DNA of 16,036 nt from a virus: the IMG/VR virus record IMGVR_UViG_3300012985_000282, one strand, 5' to 3'. The translations under genes were made by a program, and so were the position numbers. Each line of letters opens with the position of its first letter. Within the stretch, counting starts at the first letter, position 1. Shown here one piece after another: positions 1-5,744 of the stretch. The notes below the pieces were generated by a model. The model did no database searches, had not been told where the DNA came from, and worked only from the letters and a program-made list of their open reading frames with translations.

Positions 1-192
1 AACAAAGAACAATGAATCGTGGTGTAACACGAAGGTCCAACCGTCGTTACGAGCCCAGATGACCAGCACGATGCACCAGTCGTCGGTCAATCGAGACGCA
101 TCGTTGATGGGTTCGAAGACGTCAGGTCGCTCGTACAACGAGGTGTCAGGACCGATCCAGACGATGTCACCAGGGCACACGCGATCGTCCAT
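1..192 (-). CDS. PGD-GW small-domain paralog, N-terminal portion only (3' end lies beyond window edge)
   Basis: Minus-strand ATG at 190-192 reads MDDRVCPGDIVWIGPDTSLYERPDVFEPINDASRLTDDWCIVLVIWARNDGWTFVLHH... to the window edge. It has the family N-motif (CPGDIVW) and a hydrophobic LVIW core. It is missing from the ORF track because it runs off the window. There is a 9-nt gap to the stop of the upstream gene at 202. Confidence 0.5.
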   Translation of the reverse strand, partial: MDDRVCPGDIVWIGPDTSLYERPDVFEPINDASRLTDDWCIVLVIWARNDGWTFVLHHDSLFFV

Positions 193-201
193 GTTGGATA
201 A

Positions 202-531
202 CTACCCGACGATGCGTAACCAACCTCTTTTTTCGATGCCAAAGACAAAGACCAACCTCTGTAAGCGATGGTGTAACACGTACGTGTACGTGTTCACTTC
301 GTTAACGAACGAACCCGCTCGAACCTCGTGGCTGATGACTGTCATCATGTCACCGTACTTGAACCTGATGAAACCGTGCTCGACGCTGCCGTAGGGTAAC
401 CCAACCCGGTTGTCAACGTCTTCATTTTCTGTTATCGTCGTGACTAACGTACCCGGAACGTATCGCCCGATGTTCAGTAGCGCTTTCGATAGGTCATTTT
501 CGCTCATCGACCTTGCCGATGACGAATCCAA
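202..531 (-). CDS. PGD-GW small-domain paralog (alternative start at Met9, 505-507)
   Basis: 109-aa ORF with YVPGTLVTTITEN near the N-terminus, MMTVISHEV mid strand and LVFVFGIEKRGWLRIVG at the C-terminus. It overlaps the stop of the upstream membrane-protein gene. Confidence 0.55.
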   Translation of the reverse strand: MDSSSARSMSENDLSKALLNIGRYVPGTLVTTITENEDVDNRVGLPYGSVEHGFIRFKYGDMMTVISHEVRAGSFVNEVNTYTYVLHHRLQRLVFVFGIEKRGWLRIVG

Positions 532-751
532 TCGTCCTGCCCATCAACCAAAAGACAGTCGCGACAAGGATTCCCATGTCTGTCATGGGCCACAACACTG
601 CCGCGCCAAAGATGATGGTGGGATCGAGCAGGATCCTAGCCTCACCCTTGTAGAAGCGCTTGAAGAAACGAGCGCTCAGGATGAGGACGACCACGTTGAT
701 GAGGACTGGAACCCAGTATTGCTTTGGGTGCTGCATGAAGTACCACAACAT
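494..751 (-). CDS. small hydrophobic membrane protein (2-3 predicted TM helices), unknown function
   Basis: 85-aa ORF MLWYFMQHPKQYWVPVLINVVVLILSARFFKRFYKGEARILLDPTIIFGAAVLWPMTDMGILVATVFWLMGRTIGFVIGKVDERK. It contains long hydrophobic stretches and starts 4 nt after the stop of the upstream paralog. Confidence 0.5.
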   Translation of the reverse strand: MLWYFMQHPKQYWVPVLINVVVLILSARFFKRFYKGEARILLDPTIIFGAAVLWPMTDMGILVATVFWLMGRTIGFVIGKVDERK

Positions 752-755
752 CCAG

Positions 756-1034
756 TCATCCTACCTTGTGACTGCTTGACGGTACACCTAACAGCGACGC
801 GATGGGACACCACCAGATCCTGTCACGAACGAACACTATCACACCGTGTTTGGTCAGGCGAGCGACGATGAAAACGAGGACGTTGGTTCTTGGCGTCAGC
901 ATGCGACAGCCCACCCCGAGCTCACGGCTGCCGTCAGGAGGCCAGGACAGCGATGACGAGCCAGAGTGCCACGTCGCCAGGCCTCCAGGCGCGAACGAAC
1001 CAGACGTCGTGTCAATCACCACATCCACCACCAC
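756..1034 (-). CDS. PGD-GW small-domain paralog (divergent, APGG instead of PGD)
   Basis: FAPGGLATWHSG N-motif, VLVFIVARL strand and VIVFVRDRIWWCPIASL C-motif. It overlaps the upstream gene by 19 nt. Confidence 0.45.
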   Translation of the reverse strand: MVVDVVIDTTSGSFAPGGLATWHSGSSSLSWPPDGSRELGVGCRMLTPRTNVLVFIVARLTKHGVIVFVRDRIWWCPIASLLGVPSSSHKVG

Positions 1035-1264
1035 AAGCCACGGTTAGGAACCAGGACGATCGCTCCGCGTGCCTTTGAGTTAGGAAAGCAAGCGACGATC
1101 AGGAGGCGGGTGTTCGCCTTGACGGTGCAGACCTCAGCGACGACCAGGTCGTCGATCAACACCTCGTCTGGATTGTAGAAGAACGGGCGGGACAACGTGG
1201 CATCGTGTGGCCAGTGAAGCGTGTCACCCGGCCTGGCGTATACCTCACGTTCCCAACTCGCCAT
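1016..1264 (-). CDS. PGD-GW small-domain paralog
   Basis: YARPGDTLHWPHD N-motif, RLLIVACFP strand and AIVLVPNRGLWWWMW C-terminus. Confidence 0.5.
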   Translation of the reverse strand: MASWEREVYARPGDTLHWPHDATLSRPFFYNPDEVLIDDLVVAEVCTVKANTRLLIVACFPNSKARGAIVLVPNRGLWWWMW

Positions 1265-1535
1265 CTGTAAACCTATTCATGACGGTGACAATGAAACCTC
1301 GAGAGACGGAATACACGATGAAGGTCGATGCGTACGATGCTATCTCTTCGCCGAACTCGTCCTTCCCATCGATCCTAGCCAGCACGAACAACGGTCGATT
1401 CGCAGTGATGATGCTTTGATGTTTTTCATCGTACGTCCTAAATATCGTCTCTGGTGCGACAACGACGTCACCTGGACACACGTCGGGCCAGGCAATCGAA
1501 AAGGGCACGAGCACGTGAAACTTTGGAGGTCTCAC
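1245..1535 (-). CDS. PGD-GW small-domain paralog
   Basis: VCPGDVVVAPE N-motif, PLFVLARIDGKDEFGEE region and FIVYSVSRGFIVTV. Its ATG overlaps the upstream stop as ATGA (1532-1535). Confidence 0.5.
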   Translation of the reverse strand: MRPPKFHVLVPFSIAWPDVCPGDVVVAPETIFRTYDEKHQSIITANRPLFVLARIDGKDEFGEEIASYASTFIVYSVSRGFIVTVMNRFTDGELGT

Positions 1536-1780
1536 CAGCCTGTCTCTCCCATCACTCTTAACCGATAGTCGGGCAACCAGTACAGCTGCCCTCGTTTCGT
1601 CAGCACGAGGATCGTCTTGAACGCTTCTTTCACGGGTCTGACGTTTGCGATCACGAGTAACGGCGCGTCACGTAGCGTCAATGGGTCAGCAATGGGAACG
1701 CTGAGATCCGAGTCAACCCATCCCGTGATCCCGTCGCTGAAGTCAGGTATCGCGGGCCTGGCGATCTGTCCTGGTCTCAT
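1532..1780 (-). CDS. PGD-GW small-domain paralog (start at internal Met, MRPGQIARP)
   Basis: The ORF-track ORF 1532..1849 has an N-terminal extension, but the Met at 1778-1780 overlaps the upstream stop (1777-1779) as ATGA. Motifs are MRPGQIARPAIPDF, PLLVIANVRP and TILVLTKRGQLYWLPDYRL. Confidence 0.6.
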   Translation of the reverse strand: MRPGQIARPAIPDFSDGITGWVDSDLSVPIADPLTLRDAPLLVIANVRPVKEAFKTILVLTKRGQLYWLPDYRLRVMGETGW

Positions 1781-2010
1781 GAGCCCAGCCTCTTGAGGTA
1801 CTCGGTACGGGTCCAACCGATGTTGTTCAAAGCAAAGACCAATGACCAATGGGCGTCACTGAAGATGACGAGGCCGACGTCACGGCACCGGAAGGCCGCG
1901 GCCACGTCGTTCTCGTTCCAGACGTCGTTCCGCCTGGGCTTGTTTCTCATCAAGACCAGATCTATGCTCAGGTAGTGAGCGTTCTTGACCAGGTCGCCCG
2001 CCAGGATCAC
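1777..2010 (-). CDS. PGD-GW small-domain paralog
   Basis: MILAGDLVKNAHY N-motif, GLVIFSDAHWSLVFALNNIGWTRTEYL C-motif. There is an ATGA overlap with the upstream stop at 2007-2010. Confidence 0.55.
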   Translation of the reverse strand: MILAGDLVKNAHYLSIDLVLMRNKPRRNDVWNENDVAAAFRCRDVGLVIFSDAHWSLVFALNNIGWTRTEYLKRLGS

Positions 2011-2315
2011 GGTTCCACCTCGCTCGTCACGACAGGGTAGTTCTCGTTCTCAGTGGCGATCCAACCCACCTGTCCGTTGGGCAACAACAGCATCAGGGCG
2101 TAAGCGCGAGTCACCTTTTTGCTTAGTTTGCTGTACCTTGCCATCATGACCTGCGTTTGAACCGGACCAGGATGCGTGGCGATGACGAGAGCGTCACCAA
2201 AACAATTCGGCCTGACAGCGATGCCTTTGAGCTCGATGAGGTCTTGAGAGATAGCGATCTCTGGGTACAGGCTCTGGCTCTCAAAGTAAATTGTCTGCCC
2301 AGGCTTGTAGCTCAT
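2007..2315 (-). CDS. PGD-GW small-domain paralog (start at MSYKPGQ)
   Basis: The internal Met at 2313-2315 overlaps the upstream stop 2312-2314 as ATGA. Motifs are YKPGQTIYFES, ALVIATHPGP and AYALMLLLPNGQVGWIATENENY. Confidence 0.65.
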   Translation of the reverse strand: MSYKPGQTIYFESQSLYPEIAISQDLIELKGIAVRPNCFGDALVIATHPGPVQTQVMMARYSKLSKKVTRAYALMLLLPNGQVGWIATENENYPVVTSEVEP

Positions 2316-2671
2316 GGAACTACCTTGCTGACCAGCTTCAACCTGATGGACGTTCGTGTCCACCCAAAACCCTTCTTAAAACCCGCGCCTCGTAGCAAGT
2401 AGTACCACTTAGCGTCTGTCTGACAATACTGAGCGGCCACGACGAGGCACCACTCGCCGTTCTGGACAGTGCCGACGAGTTTTTCGTTCAGGACCTTGTC
2501 CATCTGATTCACGGGTAACCCAGCAACTGACTTTGGGTAACCCACCTCCTGGAACAGGCCGAGCCATGACTTGATCCTACCAGAGTTTGGAGGGAACTCG
2601 ACGCCCGTGCACTGGACAAGGTCACCCGGCTCGAAGACGGGTGGATACGGTGGGAGCTTGTCAGTCGTCAT
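2312..2671 (-). CDS. PGD-GW small-domain paralog (start at MTTDKLPPYPPVFEPGDLV)
   Basis: The Met at 2669-2671 overlaps the upstream stop 2668-2670 as ATGA. Motifs are FEPGDLVQCTGVEF, EWCLVVAAQY and WYYLLRGAGFKKGFGWTRTSIRL. Confidence 0.6.
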   Translation of the reverse strand: MTTDKLPPYPPVFEPGDLVQCTGVEFPPNSGRIKSWLGLFQEVGYPKSVAGLPVNQMDKVLNEKLVGTVQNGEWCLVVAAQYCQTDAKWYYLLRGAGFKKGFGWTRTSIRLKLVSKVVP

Positions 2672-2973
2672 GCTTTCTTCACCAGCTCTGTTGGCAGCCA
2701 TCCGAACACAGGTCCCTCTGGCGTGTTGATGAACACGAATAGCCAGTCATTCATGGGATCTGACTCACAGTCGACGTTGACGACGATCGCGACGCCAGGA
2801 AATGAAGCAAAACAATCAGACTTGAAGTCAGGACCGTACCATACCGTGAAGAGCTTCTTCCCAGACCCGTACCTGATCAGGACGCCAGGAACGAACCCAC
2901 TTTGGATCGCTAGCGCCCGTCGGGTGCCGACGTCGTCGTCCTTGTAGAGATTATCAAAGTCGCCCCAGGCCAC
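2668..2973 (-). CDS. PGD-GW small-domain paralog
   Basis: FVPGVLIRYGS, VAIVVNVDCESDP and WLFVFINTPEGPVFGWLPTEL. It starts 6 nt after the upstream stop. Confidence 0.6.
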   Translation of the reverse strand: MAWGDFDNLYKDDDVGTRRALAIQSGFVPGVLIRYGSGKKLFTVWYGPDFKSDCFASFPGVAIVVNVDCESDPMNDWLFVFINTPEGPVFGWLPTELVKKA

Positions 2974-2979
2974 CGCGTC

Positions 2980-3222
2980 TCACTTCCTGCCGTTGACCAT
3001 GACAGTGCGACTGTCGAAATTGATCCACACGGGACCTGCTGTTTGGGTCAGTATGCATATGACAGGCACTCCATCGTCAGATGCTTCCTTGTGAACGGCG
3101 ATGACTAACAGGTCGTTGCCGAGTTTCATTCCCCAAGGAGAACCTCCAAGAAAGGCCTCGTTCAGCTTTGATAGCGACCAACCGTTGGTAGCACGAACGA
3201 CGTCTCCCGGTACGATCCTCAC
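2980..3222 (-). CDS. PGD-GW small-domain paralog
   Basis: MRIVPGDVVRATNGWSL, LLVIAVHKEASDDGVPVICILTQTAGPVWINF. There is an ATGA overlap with the stop of the MazG-like gene at 3219-3222. Confidence 0.6.
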   Translation of the reverse strand: MRIVPGDVVRATNGWSLSKLNEAFLGGSPWGMKLGNDLLVIAVHKEASDDGVPVICILTQTAGPVWINFDSRTVMVNGRK

Positions 3223-3536
3223 CTCTCGTCCTCGTCTAGCAGGACAGTGAAGCCAAGCTCACCACGTTCATCGAGCTTCTTGGCATACGCAGCCTCGAGC
3301 CTGCCTGGCTCAGACAGCTCGAGGTCGTCACACAGGCGCCGGACGACCTCAATGACGTCTGCCATCTCCTCGATCTCAGCTTCTGAGGCAGGCGGAGTCG
3401 CCTGCAGCTCGAGCGCCTCCTCGACGAGCTTGGCCTTGAGCAGCGTCCATCGTTCCTCGGGACCAGCGTGTCGGGTGTGTAACCTCTCGCCTTTCGAGGC
3501 TGCAATCGCTGGTACCTTGCTTCGGATCAGTTTCAT
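3219..3536 (-). CDS. MazG-like all-alpha nucleoside triphosphate pyrophosphohydrolase (PRA-PH/MazG superfamily)
   Basis: 105 aa: MKLIRSKVPAIAASKGE...LLKAKLVEEALEL...EEMADVIEVVRRL...AAYAKKLDERGELGFTVLLDE. This matches the widespread KLVRDKIPEII...LLEE..EF...EELADVLEVI...KKAEERGGF pattern of small MazG-like NTP-PPases. There is an ATGA overlap with the upstream gene. Confidence 0.8.
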   Translation of the reverse strand: MKLIRSKVPAIAASKGERLHTRHAGPEERWTLLKAKLVEEALELQATPPASEAEIEEMADVIEVVRRLCDDLELSEPGRLEAAYAKKLDERGELGFTVLLDEDER

Positions 3537-3718
3537 GGTTTCTCTTGTTGGGTTTTGCTGAAGAGCCTACGAACGACGAGCCAGGCGTTTGCTGAGCCGG
3601 TCACGAGAAGGATCGTTCCGAACACGTATCGACGGTCGACCAACGCCTTCACGCCAGAAGCCAGGCACAAGATCGCCGCGAACAAGTTGTACCAAGGTAT
3701 CTCACGTTTCGTTTCCAT
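3533..3718 (-). CDS. small membrane protein with two predicted TM helices, unknown function
   Basis: 61 aa: METKREIPWYNLFAAILCLASGVKALVDRRYVFGTILLVTGSANAWLVVRRLFSKTQQEKP. An AGGA-type RBS (AGGATGAGAGC) lies immediately 5' of the ATG. It is coupled by ATGA to the MazG-like gene. Confidence 0.5.
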   Translation of the reverse strand: METKREIPWYNLFAAILCLASGVKALVDRRYVFGTILLVTGSANAWLVVRRLFSKTQQEKP

Positions 3719-3753
3719 GCTCTCATCCTATCATGCGAGGACCTTAAATGACA

Positions 3754-3786
3754 TCATGCCGGCCCAAGAAAATTCCGGGCCGGCAT
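3754..3786 (-). terminator. perfect 11-bp GC-rich stem-loop (catgccggccc / 11-nt loop / gggccggcatg) about 20 nt after the flotillin stop; possible RNA-stabilising or attenuating element (coordinates +/-1)
   Basis: An inverted repeat can be read directly in the sequence. No strong U-tract follows it on the minus strand (ATGTCATTTAAGG), so if it terminates it does so only partially. Confidence 0.3.
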
Positions 3787-3805
3787 GGTGGTGTGTTACC
3801 TCAGC

Positions 3806-5659
3806 TCACTGTTTGGAAGCGACGGGCGCCTTCTCGAGTGTCGCTGGCGCGGTTGGGGCCGCGGTCTTGTACTTGTCCGCTAGCATCGTCGCTAGCAAGA
3901 CGTTGACCAAGGAACTGTCGTTCGTTCCGCCGTTGCCACCTGCGACGACCGACGGGACCAACGGGAAGCCAGAGGCAGCTAGCGCTCGAGCGATCTCGAT
4001 GCTTGCGTAGTTCTTCTGGTCGACGGCGTCTGCCTTCGCCTTGACGACGCCCGCCTCTGCCAAACCGACAGCGCTGATCTTCGAGCCTTCAGCGTCGCCG
4101 ATGAGCTTCAGCACCGAGGCGTCTGCCTCTGCGTTGATGGTCTTCGACTTGGCGTCACCTTCTGCTTTCTTCACCGCCGTCTGAGCATCGAACTCAGCAA
4201 TGGTAACCTTACGCTCGGCGTCGACGACCCTTGCTTGGGTCGCTGCCATTGCACGTGACTGTTCGAGCAACTTGCGTTGGTCTTCAGCCTGACGTTGCGT
4301 GGCGTACGTCTCTTGCTCTTGCTCTGCGATCTTACGATCGGTGAGCGTCTTCATCAGCTCAGCGGGAGGCGTGATGTCACCGATCAAGGTGTCGACAGCG
4401 ACGACGTTGTACTCGGTCAATGCGGTCTCGATCGCTTTCTTTGCGTCATCCTGGCGCTTCTGACGTTCTCCAAGGAACTTGATGACATCTGAACCTTGCG
4501 CAGCGTTGCGAAAGTAGTTGCCGATCGTCGGCTCGAGCACCTGGGTCACCAGGTTGGCGACCTTACCGAACCGAGCGATGACCCGAGGGGCGTCAGTGCG
4601 GGGGATGTGAATGATCTGGCTGACGTCGAGATTGAAGGTGAAGCCGTCGCTCGATCGAACGGTGATGGTACACAGGTTCTTGTCGAGGTTGTGTGCCTCG
4701 TTCTTGCCGTCGGCCCAGTTGAGCACCACGTTTGCAGTCGGTACCGCCTCGATCTTGTGGGTGTACGGGTTGATTGGGTACTTGCCTGGATCCAGCGGTT
4801 CGGCCCAGACGCCCTTCTCACCACGACCGACGAGGTTGCCGTGCTTGAATGCATCACCAGTCACGTCTACGCCCGGCTTGCCAACGAACGCAATGACCAC
4901 ACCTGCGTGAGCGATCGGCACCTCTGTCATCGGCACCTCTTCGACGGTTGCGAACAACGGGTTGATGTAGTAGCGACCGGCGAGAATGACCTGCTCCTGC
5001 AGGCCTTTCTTGCCTCCAGCGTTGACGAACGCTTGGGCGCTCTGGAACATGTTGTGTCCGACCACCTCTTCGCCAGCGATATCACCAGTTGCGAGCGGCG
5101 TGCCTTCCTTTGTCGTCACGACGCCGACTTGATTGTCCTTGATCTCGGTGACCTTCGCTAGCTCGACCTTGAACAGTTGCAGGTTGATGCGGTACGTACC
5201 AGGAGCGATGATCGCGATTTGAGGACCACGTTCTCCACCTCGGGTCAAGAAAGAACGAGCGTCTTGGAACGAGTCACAAGCGATCGATTGTCCAAGAACG
5301 CGACCGTCTGACGGAGTGCGGCCGTCTCGAGCGGTTACCACACCGAGCTGGTCACGGTTGATGGTGACGAATCCAACTTGCTCGACCTTGTACTGCCACG
5401 GCCACAACCAAAAGTGAACGCCCGGGGCGAGGGTGTCAGCTTGGACGCCTGCCTCGCCGTTGAGCGCGACGACCGCGCCGTCAGGCAACGACTTGTTGGC
5501 GCCGAAGAGGACGAACTTCTTGGTCACGATGCCGATGCTGTCCTCAGGGATGACGACGACGCCAAACATCCGAAGGACGAACTTGTGAAGGACCAGCGCT
5601 AGGACAACGCCCAGCAGGACCGCGCCTAAGGCGAGGTGAGAGACGATGAAATCTAACAT
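3806..5659 (-). CDS. SPFH/band-7 flotillin-like protein (YqiK/FloT family)
   Basis: The ORF track gives 3806..5728 from a TTG start. An in-frame ATG at 5657-5659 begins MLDFIVSHLALGAVLLGVVLALVLHKF, an N-terminal TM anchor, and is preceded by a purine-rich stretch. The protein has an SPFH-like core and a long Ala/Glu/Lys-rich coiled-coil C-terminal half (KAEGDAKSKTINAEADASVLKLIGDAEGSKISAVGLAEAGVVKAKADA...) with a GG-rich tail, as in bacterial flotillins. Confidence 0.88.
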   Translation of the reverse strand: MLDFIVSHLALGAVLLGVVLALVLHKFVLRMFGVVVIPEDSIGIVTKKFVLFGANKSLPDGAVVALNGEAGVQADTLAPGVHFWLWPWQYKVEQVGFVTINRDQLGVVTARDGRTPSDGRVLGQSIACDSFQDARSFLTRGGERGPQIAIIAPGTYRINLQLFKVELAKVTEIKDNQVGVVTTKEGTPLATGDIAGEEVVGHNMFQSAQAFVNAGGKKGLQEQVILAGRYYINPLFATVEEVPMTEVPIAHAGVVIAFVGKPGVDVTGDAFKHGNLVGRGEKGVWAEPLDPGKYPINPYTHKIEAVPTANVVLNWADGKNEAHNLDKNLCTITVRSSDGFTFNLDVSQIIHIPRTDAPRVIARFGKVANLVTQVLEPTIGNYFRNAAQGSDVIKFLGERQKRQDDAKKAIETALTEYNVVAVDTLIGDITPPAELMKTLTDRKIAEQEQETYATQRQAEDQRKLLEQSRAMAATQARVVDAERKVTIAEFDAQTAVKKAEGDAKSKTINAEADASVLKLIGDAEGSKISAVGLAEAGVVKAKADAVDQKNYASIEIARALAASGFPLVPSVVAGGNGGTNDSSLVNVLLATMLADKYKTAAPTAPATLEKAPVASKQ

Positions 5660-5697
5660 GTTTTTCTTTCTATTGTGATCAGAGCCAAAAGATGAAA

Positions 5698-5725
5698 GGC
5701 CGTCCCAGATCTCTCCAGGACGGCC
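5698..5725 (-). terminator. stem-loop (ggccgtcc / 12-nt loop containing agatct / ggacggcc) followed on the coding strand by TTTCATCTTTT; candidate intrinsic attenuator between the MVP and flotillin genes
   Basis: A perfect 8-bp GC-rich inverted repeat lies in the 85-nt MVP-flotillin intergenic spacer, with a T-rich tract 3' of it on the minus strand. Confidence 0.35.
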
Positions 5726-5744
5726 CAACGATCGTGCCTATCGA

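Follow-up and report, generated by a model that had tools for sequence, protein, structure and literature searches.

Gene content of the window

The window analysed here is the whole 16,036-nt stretch of viral DNA in IMG/VR record IMGVR_UViG_3300012985_000282, and our subject is a tandem array of small paralogous genes found in it on both sides of a gene for a major vault protein (MVP) homologue. The minus strand carries every credible gene of the window, in one dense gene train, see Table 1. Thirty-four of these genes, all co-oriented and in tandem, belong to a single family of standalone, single-domain proteins of 70-130 aa. Eleven copies are on the low side, i.e., 3' of a 105-aa gene (window 1-3222), where ten are complete, the left edge truncates one, and a small membrane protein accompanies them. 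The other 23 are on the high side, i.e., 5' of a DUF4314 gene, between 8770 and 16033, with three non-family small genes among them. This is the layout that a first-pass annotation of the sequence had described. The eleven family members and one small membrane protein, 3' of a gene called "MazG-like" and running off the left edge, are recovered from the gene layout, and the eleven family members also with a hidden Markov model (HMM) of upstream copies only. The 23 copies 5' of DUF4314 are confirmed, and the nesting of a core within the array is real, with copies flanking MVP in several relatives as well.

The array runs past both window edges, on the right-hand side by ~3.7 kb. The 40.7-kb contig k141_3586583 from ENA contains 38-39 upstream copies and, downstream, 11 contiguous and 2-3 scattered divergent ones. 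Over the whole contig the total is ~50-60 family copies on a single strand, and the family takes up roughly 17 kb of the phage genome.

The explanation that we consider best, with a probability of about 0.72, is that one fast-diverging family of bacterial SH3 (SH3b)-like proteins fills both variable regions beside DUF4314-MVP, and that its copies grew around MVP, a fixed backbone gene, so that the array would not have been split by an inserted module. The locus would then combine a stable low-side block, a birth-and-death array on the high side and lineage-specific cargo, and the family proteins would function as binding modules.

A family of standalone SH3b-like proteins

The family is recognised by the motif pattern PGD-hydrophobic ... 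L-W ... L-V-I-A ... Y/W-x-x-V-L ... G-W/Y-V. Membership of the low-side copies was tested in a non-circular manner, using the HMM built from upstream copies only, including some outside the window. Every one of the 11 low-side copies is found with this HMM (E 8e-9 to 0.044), which matches no ORF in the wrong frame or on the plus strand; its further matches are alternative-start ORFs over high-side copies and a few candidate copies further downstream. When each low-side copy, together with its orthologue where one exists, is compared with the same profile by hhalign, 10 of the 11 obtain a probability of 65-96%, against 0.3-0.8% for four non-family control proteins. The remaining copy, at 2007-2315, obtains only 6.7% because of its loop insertion. 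All motifs are kept in this copy, and its AlphaFold model, made with the family alignment, has strands at the motifs at modest confidence (pLDDT 66). DUF4314 was also considered as a distant family member, which hhalign ruled out.

Structurally, another modelled copy is a confident all-beta barrel with an N-terminal helix (AlphaFold, pLDDT 89). From this model the family is predicted to have an SH3b-like fold, i.e., a small five- to seven-stranded SH3-type beta-barrel. A profile search of 1.84 billion representatives found 281 proteins; some of these are SH3_3 repeat proteins, and over 100 are distinct small proteins carrying the same motifs. The profile of 33 window copies matches the multi-repeat proteins at E 2e-11 to 1e-9, although these whole-protein scores sum several repeats and the evidence per domain is weaker. 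Pfam confirms these matches as SH3_3 / SH3_4 repeat proteins. In a Pfam scan of 11 family copies, none reaches an SH3 gathering threshold (SH3_3 / SH3_4 and related), and the sole sub-threshold SH3 match is to SH3_2 (E 0.0076, 16.4 bits versus a cutoff of 21.8) in the ORF at 8770-9303. This longest ORF, of 177 aa, is an over-extension; the region really contains a 76-aa family copy (8770-9000) and a 67-aa gene in another frame. Pfam, PHROG and NCBIfam contain no model that covers the family, and no source names any member. With the family alignment as query, a word-indexed search of 5.8 billion proteins gave self matches only, searches of viral contigs with single members returned the same phage or nothing, and patterns of exact 8-mers proved too stringent for the family.

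The family shares the C-terminal G-W/Y-V motif with SH3b domains of the Pfam SH3_3 / SH3_4 clan, which are known as modules for cell-wall binding in endolysins and NlpC/P60 hydrolases. Unlike these domains, it has neither a catalytic partner domain nor a signal-like N-terminal segment, and it adds an N-terminal PGD-hydrophobic motif, a long variable loop and the organisation as a tandem multigene array. The usual SH3b context, fusion to a secreted cell-wall hydrolase or adhesin, is not seen for these standalone 70-130-aa ORFs. No N-terminal hydrophobic segment is present in the family copies, and their hydrophobic maxima fall on the core strands. Five metagenome representatives (P0004, P0010, P0023, P0064 and P0111) consist of two fused family domains and have lengths of 156-205 aa. 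From such sequences it appears that adjacent family copies sometimes fuse into tandem-domain proteins.

Conservation in the family is limited to fold-core positions, the remaining positions are near maximal entropy, and the pI ranges from 4.3 to 10.1. It is this conservation of the core only, with diversified loops, surface and charge, that leads us to read the family as diversified binding modules. They would be cytoplasmic, have many different targets, and act most plausibly as accessory host-interaction or counter-defence factors.

One flank is stable and the other turns over

The two flanks evolve in different ways. In the closest relative, locus L025, whose MVP is ~80% identical, the gene order is anchor gene, three family copies, DUF4314, MVP, a gene for a 231-aa zincin, and then orthologues of the low-side copies. 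Eight of the 11 low-side copies (those starting at 2980, 2668, 2312, 1532, 1245, 1016, 756 and 202) have collinear orthologues there, at 29-59% identity, and five of these pairs have 73-99% bootstrap support. The collinear, bootstrap-supported orthologues show that the low-side block is old and stable, a set of ancient paralogues.

The high-side block is instead a birth-and-death array. Variation in copy number between strains and non-collinear turnover are found here only, with three copies in L025, 38-39 or ~47 in strains of the phage itself, and at least 43, non-collinear, in locus L030 (GCA_034680565.1, JAXOUH010042983.1). In L030 these copies are consecutive at 8698-20237, start directly after the anchor gene and continue to the end of the locus; they are mostly 70-80-aa proteins of the "GY" type. 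The anchor protein of L030 is 88% identical to that of our phage, whereas its family copies are only 25-50% identical, out of order, and related by many-to-one best matches.

One change in copy number can be followed at the nucleotide level. Strains that are ~99% identical differ by 1,990 bp, corresponding to ~9 copies, a stretch that one of them lacks and three other assemblies contain. The deletion site (L003 7559-7609 / L004 2836-4926) is located ~2.4 kb beyond the right window edge. Its junction falls inside 51 nt over which two paralogues are 84% identical, and a chimeric 86-aa gene is left. This one event suggests that recombination between paralogues is responsible for at least part of the change in copy number.

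Within the array, the short "GY" copies of the distal high side are 30-51% identical to their neighbours, while the core-proximal high-side copies and the low-side copies are 17-25% identical to any other copy. Recent identical duplicates were not found, and copies are less than 70% identical at the DNA level. As for a diversity-generating retroelement, the precomputed Pfam labels contain no reverse-transcriptase family, and there are no DNA repeats longer than ~30 nt.

The vault protein is a backbone gene of a huge-phage clade

The 898-aa gene is predicted from its sequence to encode a major vault protein, with repeats, a shoulder (SPFH-like) domain and a long C-terminal helix. Besides the matches in Table 1 it contains a Vault repeat (0.033), and its C-terminal third is rich in Ala, Glu and Lys. 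Assembly into a vault-like cage is putative. Phage-encoded MVPs have been reported before, in two human-gut Caudoviricetes (bioRxiv 10.1101/2023.11.10.566534; 10.1101/872010). The reported phage and bacterial homologues have the same architecture of MVP repeat, shoulder and coiled coil as the window gene. The present MVP differs from them in belonging to the backbone of a huge-phage clade from soil or groundwater, and in being paired with SPFH in two lineages and with SH3b-like arrays on both flanks.

MVP is conserved in 15 IMG/VR loci, and the viral contigs on which its relatives are found in IMG/VR reach 359 kb. It is 38-40% identical to genes of uncultured phage genomes of 462-735 kb, and the closest relative sits on a 227-kb groundwater contig. 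As the MVP relatives lie on large phage contigs, the window most probably is part of the genome of an uncultured huge (jumbo) phage from soil or groundwater.

Across the relatives the backbone order is kept: ATPase, ~200-aa anchor gene, MVP, 165-aa gene, Peptidase_M24, Metallophos. The interval between the anchor gene and MVP is as short as 2.7 kb and as long as 12-14 kb. All relatives that were located by means of MVP contain this gene, and only some contain DUF4314. SPFH is common only to our phage and L013, so the MVP-SPFH pairing is known from these two lineages. For the 61-aa membrane protein (TM61) and the 105-aa gene there is no homologue in any relative examined; L025 has neither of them, nor SPFH. 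The slot just after MVP holds unrelated genes in different relatives. In L025 it is filled, at 8735-9430, by the 231-aa protein, which has a lipoprotein-type signal and an HxxGHxxGxxH-like zincin motif. This gene was considered as a conserved MVP partner and rejected, having no homologue in our phage or the other relatives.

Because its five genes differ in their distribution among relatives, the "core module" is not one unit. Its backbone is MVP, usually together with DUF4314. SPFH, TM61 and the 105-aa gene are best read as lineage-specific cargo in a third variable slot just after MVP. The name "MazG-like" given earlier to the 105-aa gene could not be upheld, as it has no profile support in four libraries, and the gene has no significant match in Pfam, PHROG, NCBIfam or PDB sequences. 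It may resemble COG4997-type proteins, which we take as a lead only.

Is the family tied to the vault protein?

The clustering of the genes could be explained by a functional tie, in which the SH3b-like proteins would be cargo, adaptors or regulators of a vault-like MVP or SPFH assembly. Binding of proteins or peptides is typical of SH3-type barrels, translation of the first low-side copy is coupled to that of the gene train after SPFH, and family copies occur within 10 kb of MVP in nine of the ten loci where MVP is 63-80% identical to ours. However, none of the seven loci with an MVP of 37-41% identity has a family copy within 10-20 kb, and in L028 family clusters occur without MVP within 10 kb. 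The copy number near MVP ranges from 0 (L011) to ~60, which is awkward for a stoichiometric partner. We regard such a tie as unlikely, and the link between family and MVP would seem to be clade-specific. In the huge phage LR756500, MVP is present with no family copy or other shared gene within 20 kb on either side.

A more specific form of this idea, to which we give a very low probability, is that the family is a diversified client or adaptor library of an MVP vault-like compartment, with SPFH as a partner in some lineages and each copy docking a different molecule, of host or phage, to the cage. If true, no earlier viral vault system would be known to have its own rapidly evolving family for the targeting of cargo.

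Insertion of a module or expansion around a backbone

The first-pass annotation had left two possibilities for the nesting, insertion of the core into an existing array, for which DUF4314 was taken as a hint, or expansion of the array around it. It is quite improbable that the five-gene core (DUF4314, MVP, SPFH, TM61, "MazG-like") is a mobile module inserted into a once-continuous array. Such a module could account for the G+C content of 0.57-0.62 across 3500-8500, compared with 0.49-0.58 in the arrays, and for the absence of SPFH, TM61 and the 105-aa gene from the closest relative. It would also fit with one paralogue being on opposite sides of MVP in different lineages. Further, the presence of MVP in very different huge phages without other shared genes (LR756500, 24% G+C) suggests past horizontal spread.

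The comparison with relatives nevertheless speaks against insertion of the core as a whole. Its five genes are unequally distributed, and nowhere among the relatives does the core behave as a presence/absence unit. In L025, DUF4314-MVP has the same syntenic position with copies on both sides, and the low-side copies are collinear with orthologues downstream of MVP; in L010, L013 and L014, MVP is likewise flanked by copies on both sides. L017 contains two family copies downstream of MVP, and its upstream flank is cut at ~1.1 kb. Since several relatives have copies on both flanks, the nesting is old. The core boundaries have no mobile-element signature either. Repeats spanning or flanking the core are only 16-29-nt chance or codon-motif matches, none at the boundaries, so that no direct or inverted repeats bound it; searches found no tRNA and no known RNA there, and neither an integrase nor a transposase family is among the precomputed Pfam labels over ~35 kb of the contig. 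The junctions between TM61, the 105-aa gene and the first low-side copy are 4-nt overlaps, as is typical of the array. Of the two possibilities, expansion around DUF4314-MVP is thus favoured by its fixed backbone position. Insertion or replacement did take place for SPFH, TM61 and the 105-aa gene only.

Several observations weigh against growth of an array of binding modules around a fixed backbone. Copy 2312-2671 is downstream of MVP in our phage, as is its orthologue in L025, but the orthologues in L009 and L010 are upstream of MVP, so at least one relocation across MVP must have taken place. DUF4314 is 5.3 kb from MVP in L009, and gene order around MVP is therefore not fully fixed. Deep branches of the paralogue tree are poorly supported. 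No relative lacking MVP was found, and an ancient insertion into a proto-array may have come first. Concerning function, SH3b domains of peptidoglycan hydrolases score best as neighbours among solved structures, and their ligand is the cell wall and not an intracellular protein.

The low-side copies do not form a subfamily

It had also been suggested that the low-side copies are a distinct subfamily with longer N-terminal extensions, which we consider highly improbable. Some low-side copies do have 14-28 residues before the PG motif, and the low-side profile fits the long "GW" copies of the high side better than the short "GY" ones. On average, however, 11.3 residues precede the PG motif on the low side and 11.7 on the high side (Mann-Whitney p = 0.92), and with MRPGQIARPAIPDF, quoted earlier as an extension, the domain proper already begins. 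High-side copies have a mean identity of 21.6% to one another and of 18.1% to those of the low side; the lowest mean, 17.0%, is that among the low-side copies, which have their nearest neighbours on the high side.

In the tree, low-side copies occur in at least six places with no uniting clade. The flank label changes 6 times on the tree, compared with 10.0 +/- 0.9 times for random labels (p = 0.001). The labels are non-random because adjacent pairs cluster, a sign of old local duplications. A flank-labelled phylogeny therefore does have structure, though of adjacent pairs only.

The copies are real genes

An artefactual array, produced by misassembly of repeats or by chance ORFs, can practically be dismissed: metagenome assemblies can turn short repeated ORFs chimeric, but here five or more assemblies, made independently from different samples, are 99-100% in agreement, the copies have almost no mutual DNA-level similarity that could lead to repeat collapse, family matches are limited to one strand and frame, and the single-nucleotide polymorphisms (SNPs) have the pattern of purifying selection. 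The window is 99.9% identical to contig k141_3586583 and 99.3% to a second strain, and further copies of its sequence are found in JGI, Logan and IMG/VR. Compared with the 99.3%-identical strain, the family genes have 36 synonymous and 16 non-synonymous SNPs, and MVP has 32 and 0. These ratios indicate that the family copies, like MVP, are real coding genes, probably under purifying selection.

SNPs against the 99.3% strain are clustered, with 17 in the family gene at 13389-13700 and 23 across the 85-aa membrane gene and its neighbour (202-751). The copy at 202-507 also differs by SNPs from the recorded contig. The clusters at 13389-13700, 202-751 and 5745-8441 suggest recombination patches between co-existing strains.

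Comparison with other multigene families

Multigene families and gene "accordions" occur in large DNA viruses, for example, the multigene families of African swine fever virus (ASFV), the amplification of K3L in poxviruses and the repeat-protein families of giant viruses. The present array resembles them in its same-strand tandem paralogues, copy-number differences between close strains and birth-and-death turnover among relatives. It differs in its prokaryotic host, its very small single-domain proteins and DNA identities below 70%. A tentative suggestion, which we hold to be possible and somewhat doubtful, is that the family is a phage equivalent of the multigene families with which large eukaryotic viruses evade immunity. 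Birth-and-death tandem multigene families, a familiar feature of large eukaryotic DNA viruses, have to our knowledge seldom been described in phages, and a literature search for tandem paralogue arrays of phages gave no relevant result.

T4-like and other large phages have hyperplastic (plastic) regions, in which small accessory ORFs, mostly unrelated ORFans, lie between conserved modules. Such regions share with the window the dense, co-oriented, overlapping small genes between backbone genes and the variable length, and a T4_Y16D-like gene is even embedded here. Unlike in the T4-type regions, one family of ~50-60 members makes up the greater part of the region.

The novelty lies in a standalone SH3b-like family that no profile model covers, present in ~50-60 tandem copies, in stable and fast-turnover blocks beside a backbone MVP. 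As a phage example of a tandem multigene family, a single uncharacterised SH3b-like family with so many copies would be unusually large. With more than 100 distinct members in public metagenomes and no Pfam or PHROG model, a family definition is merited. Stable and fast-turnover blocks of one family around one gene offer a natural system for studying how phage accessory repertoires grow, and MVP is placed as a conserved backbone gene in an environmental huge-phage clade.

Features of the window

Table 1. Genes and other features of the window, with the evidence for each; HMM and hhalign values of the low-side copies refer to the upstream-only model unless stated otherwise.
Feature	Position	Strand	Evidence and remarks
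Family copy cut by left edge	1-192	-	Start codon at 192; complete 82-aa ORF in k141_3586583; family HMM E 5e-16; upstream-only HMM E 8e-9; hhalign 95.7%
Family copy, 101 aa, weak, insertion ahead of C-terminal GW motif	202-507	-	HMM E 0.012; hhalign 86.8%; 34% to collinear L025 11429-11749
Hydrophobic small membrane protein, 85 aa, non-family	494-751	-	hhalign control 0.8%; not in L025
Family copy	756-1019	-	Orthologues downstream of MVP in L014 (53%) and L025 (59%); bootstrap 97%
Family copy	1016-1264	-	L025 orthologue 58%, bootstrap 96%; old tandem pair with 756-1019 (pair clade 65%)
Family copy, GF replaces GW	1245-1535	-	HMM E 0.033; hhalign 73.6%; L025 orthologue 35%
Family copy, starts MRPGQ	1532-1780	-	HMM and hhalign; L025 orthologue 35%
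Family copy, AGD replaces PGD	1777-2010	-	HMM E 1e-4; hhalign 83%; without L025 orthologue
Probable family copy, weakest, loop insertion of ~20 residues	2007-2315	-	HMM E 0.044; hhalign 6.7%; model pLDDT 66; without L025 orthologue
Family copy	2312-2671	-	Orthologue downstream of MVP in L025 (57%), upstream of MVP in L009 and L010; bootstrap 99%
Family copy	2668-2973	-	L025 orthologue 41%; bootstrap 92%
Family copy, first after core	2980-3222	-	Start overlaps stop of 105-aa gene by 4 nt; L025 orthologue 29%, bootstrap 73%
Helical protein, 105 aa, formerly "MazG-like"	3219-3536	-	Lineage-specific; label without profile support
Small membrane protein, 61 aa (TM61)	3533-3718	-	Lineage-specific
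GC-rich hairpin, 13 bp	3755-3787	-	Directly 3' of SPFH stop codon
SPFH/Band 7 (flotillin-like) membrane protein, 617 aa	3806-5659	-	Band_7 4.5e-28; 74% to L013
Hairpin, 13 bp	5697-5726	-	Directly 3' of MVP stop codon
Major-vault-protein (MVP) homologue, 898 aa	5745-8441	-	MVP_shoulder 3e-30; Vault_3 4e-9
DUF4314 protein, 75 aa	8499-8726	-	Adjoins MVP in L017 and L025; 5.3 kb off in L009
Family copy, 76 aa, high-side copy nearest core	8770-9000	-	Gene calls and family alignment
Non-family gene, 67 aa	9000-9203	-	Separate frame
Cys-rich non-family gene, 68 aa	9200-9406	-	CxxC-type pairs
Two family copies	9403-9723, 9710-10027	-	Family HMM
T4_Y16D-like gene, 95 aa, non-family	10024-10311	-	PF26092; phrog_839, 1.5e-15
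20 consecutive family copies	10268-16033	-	"GW, long" type mostly 10268-14642; "GY, short" type mostly 14582-16033

Of the non-family genes on the high side, the T4_Y16D-like gene shares 44 nt with the end of the family gene before it. The Cys-rich 68-aa protein has several CxxC-type pairs; it is probably a zinc ribbon and has no family assignment. Four plus-strand ORFs opposite MVP and SPFH (4496-5161, 6045-6653, 6870-7286 and 7392-7862) were rejected as genes, their apparent conservation mirroring that of the coding strand. A scan for sigma-70 promoters gave seven sites, compared with 5.4 expected from shuffles, i.e., no enrichment. The two hairpins, both strong and GC-rich, occupy the only sizeable intergenic gaps. 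Located after the stops of MVP and SPFH, they are possible terminators or attenuators separating both genes from the tightly coupled train of small genes.

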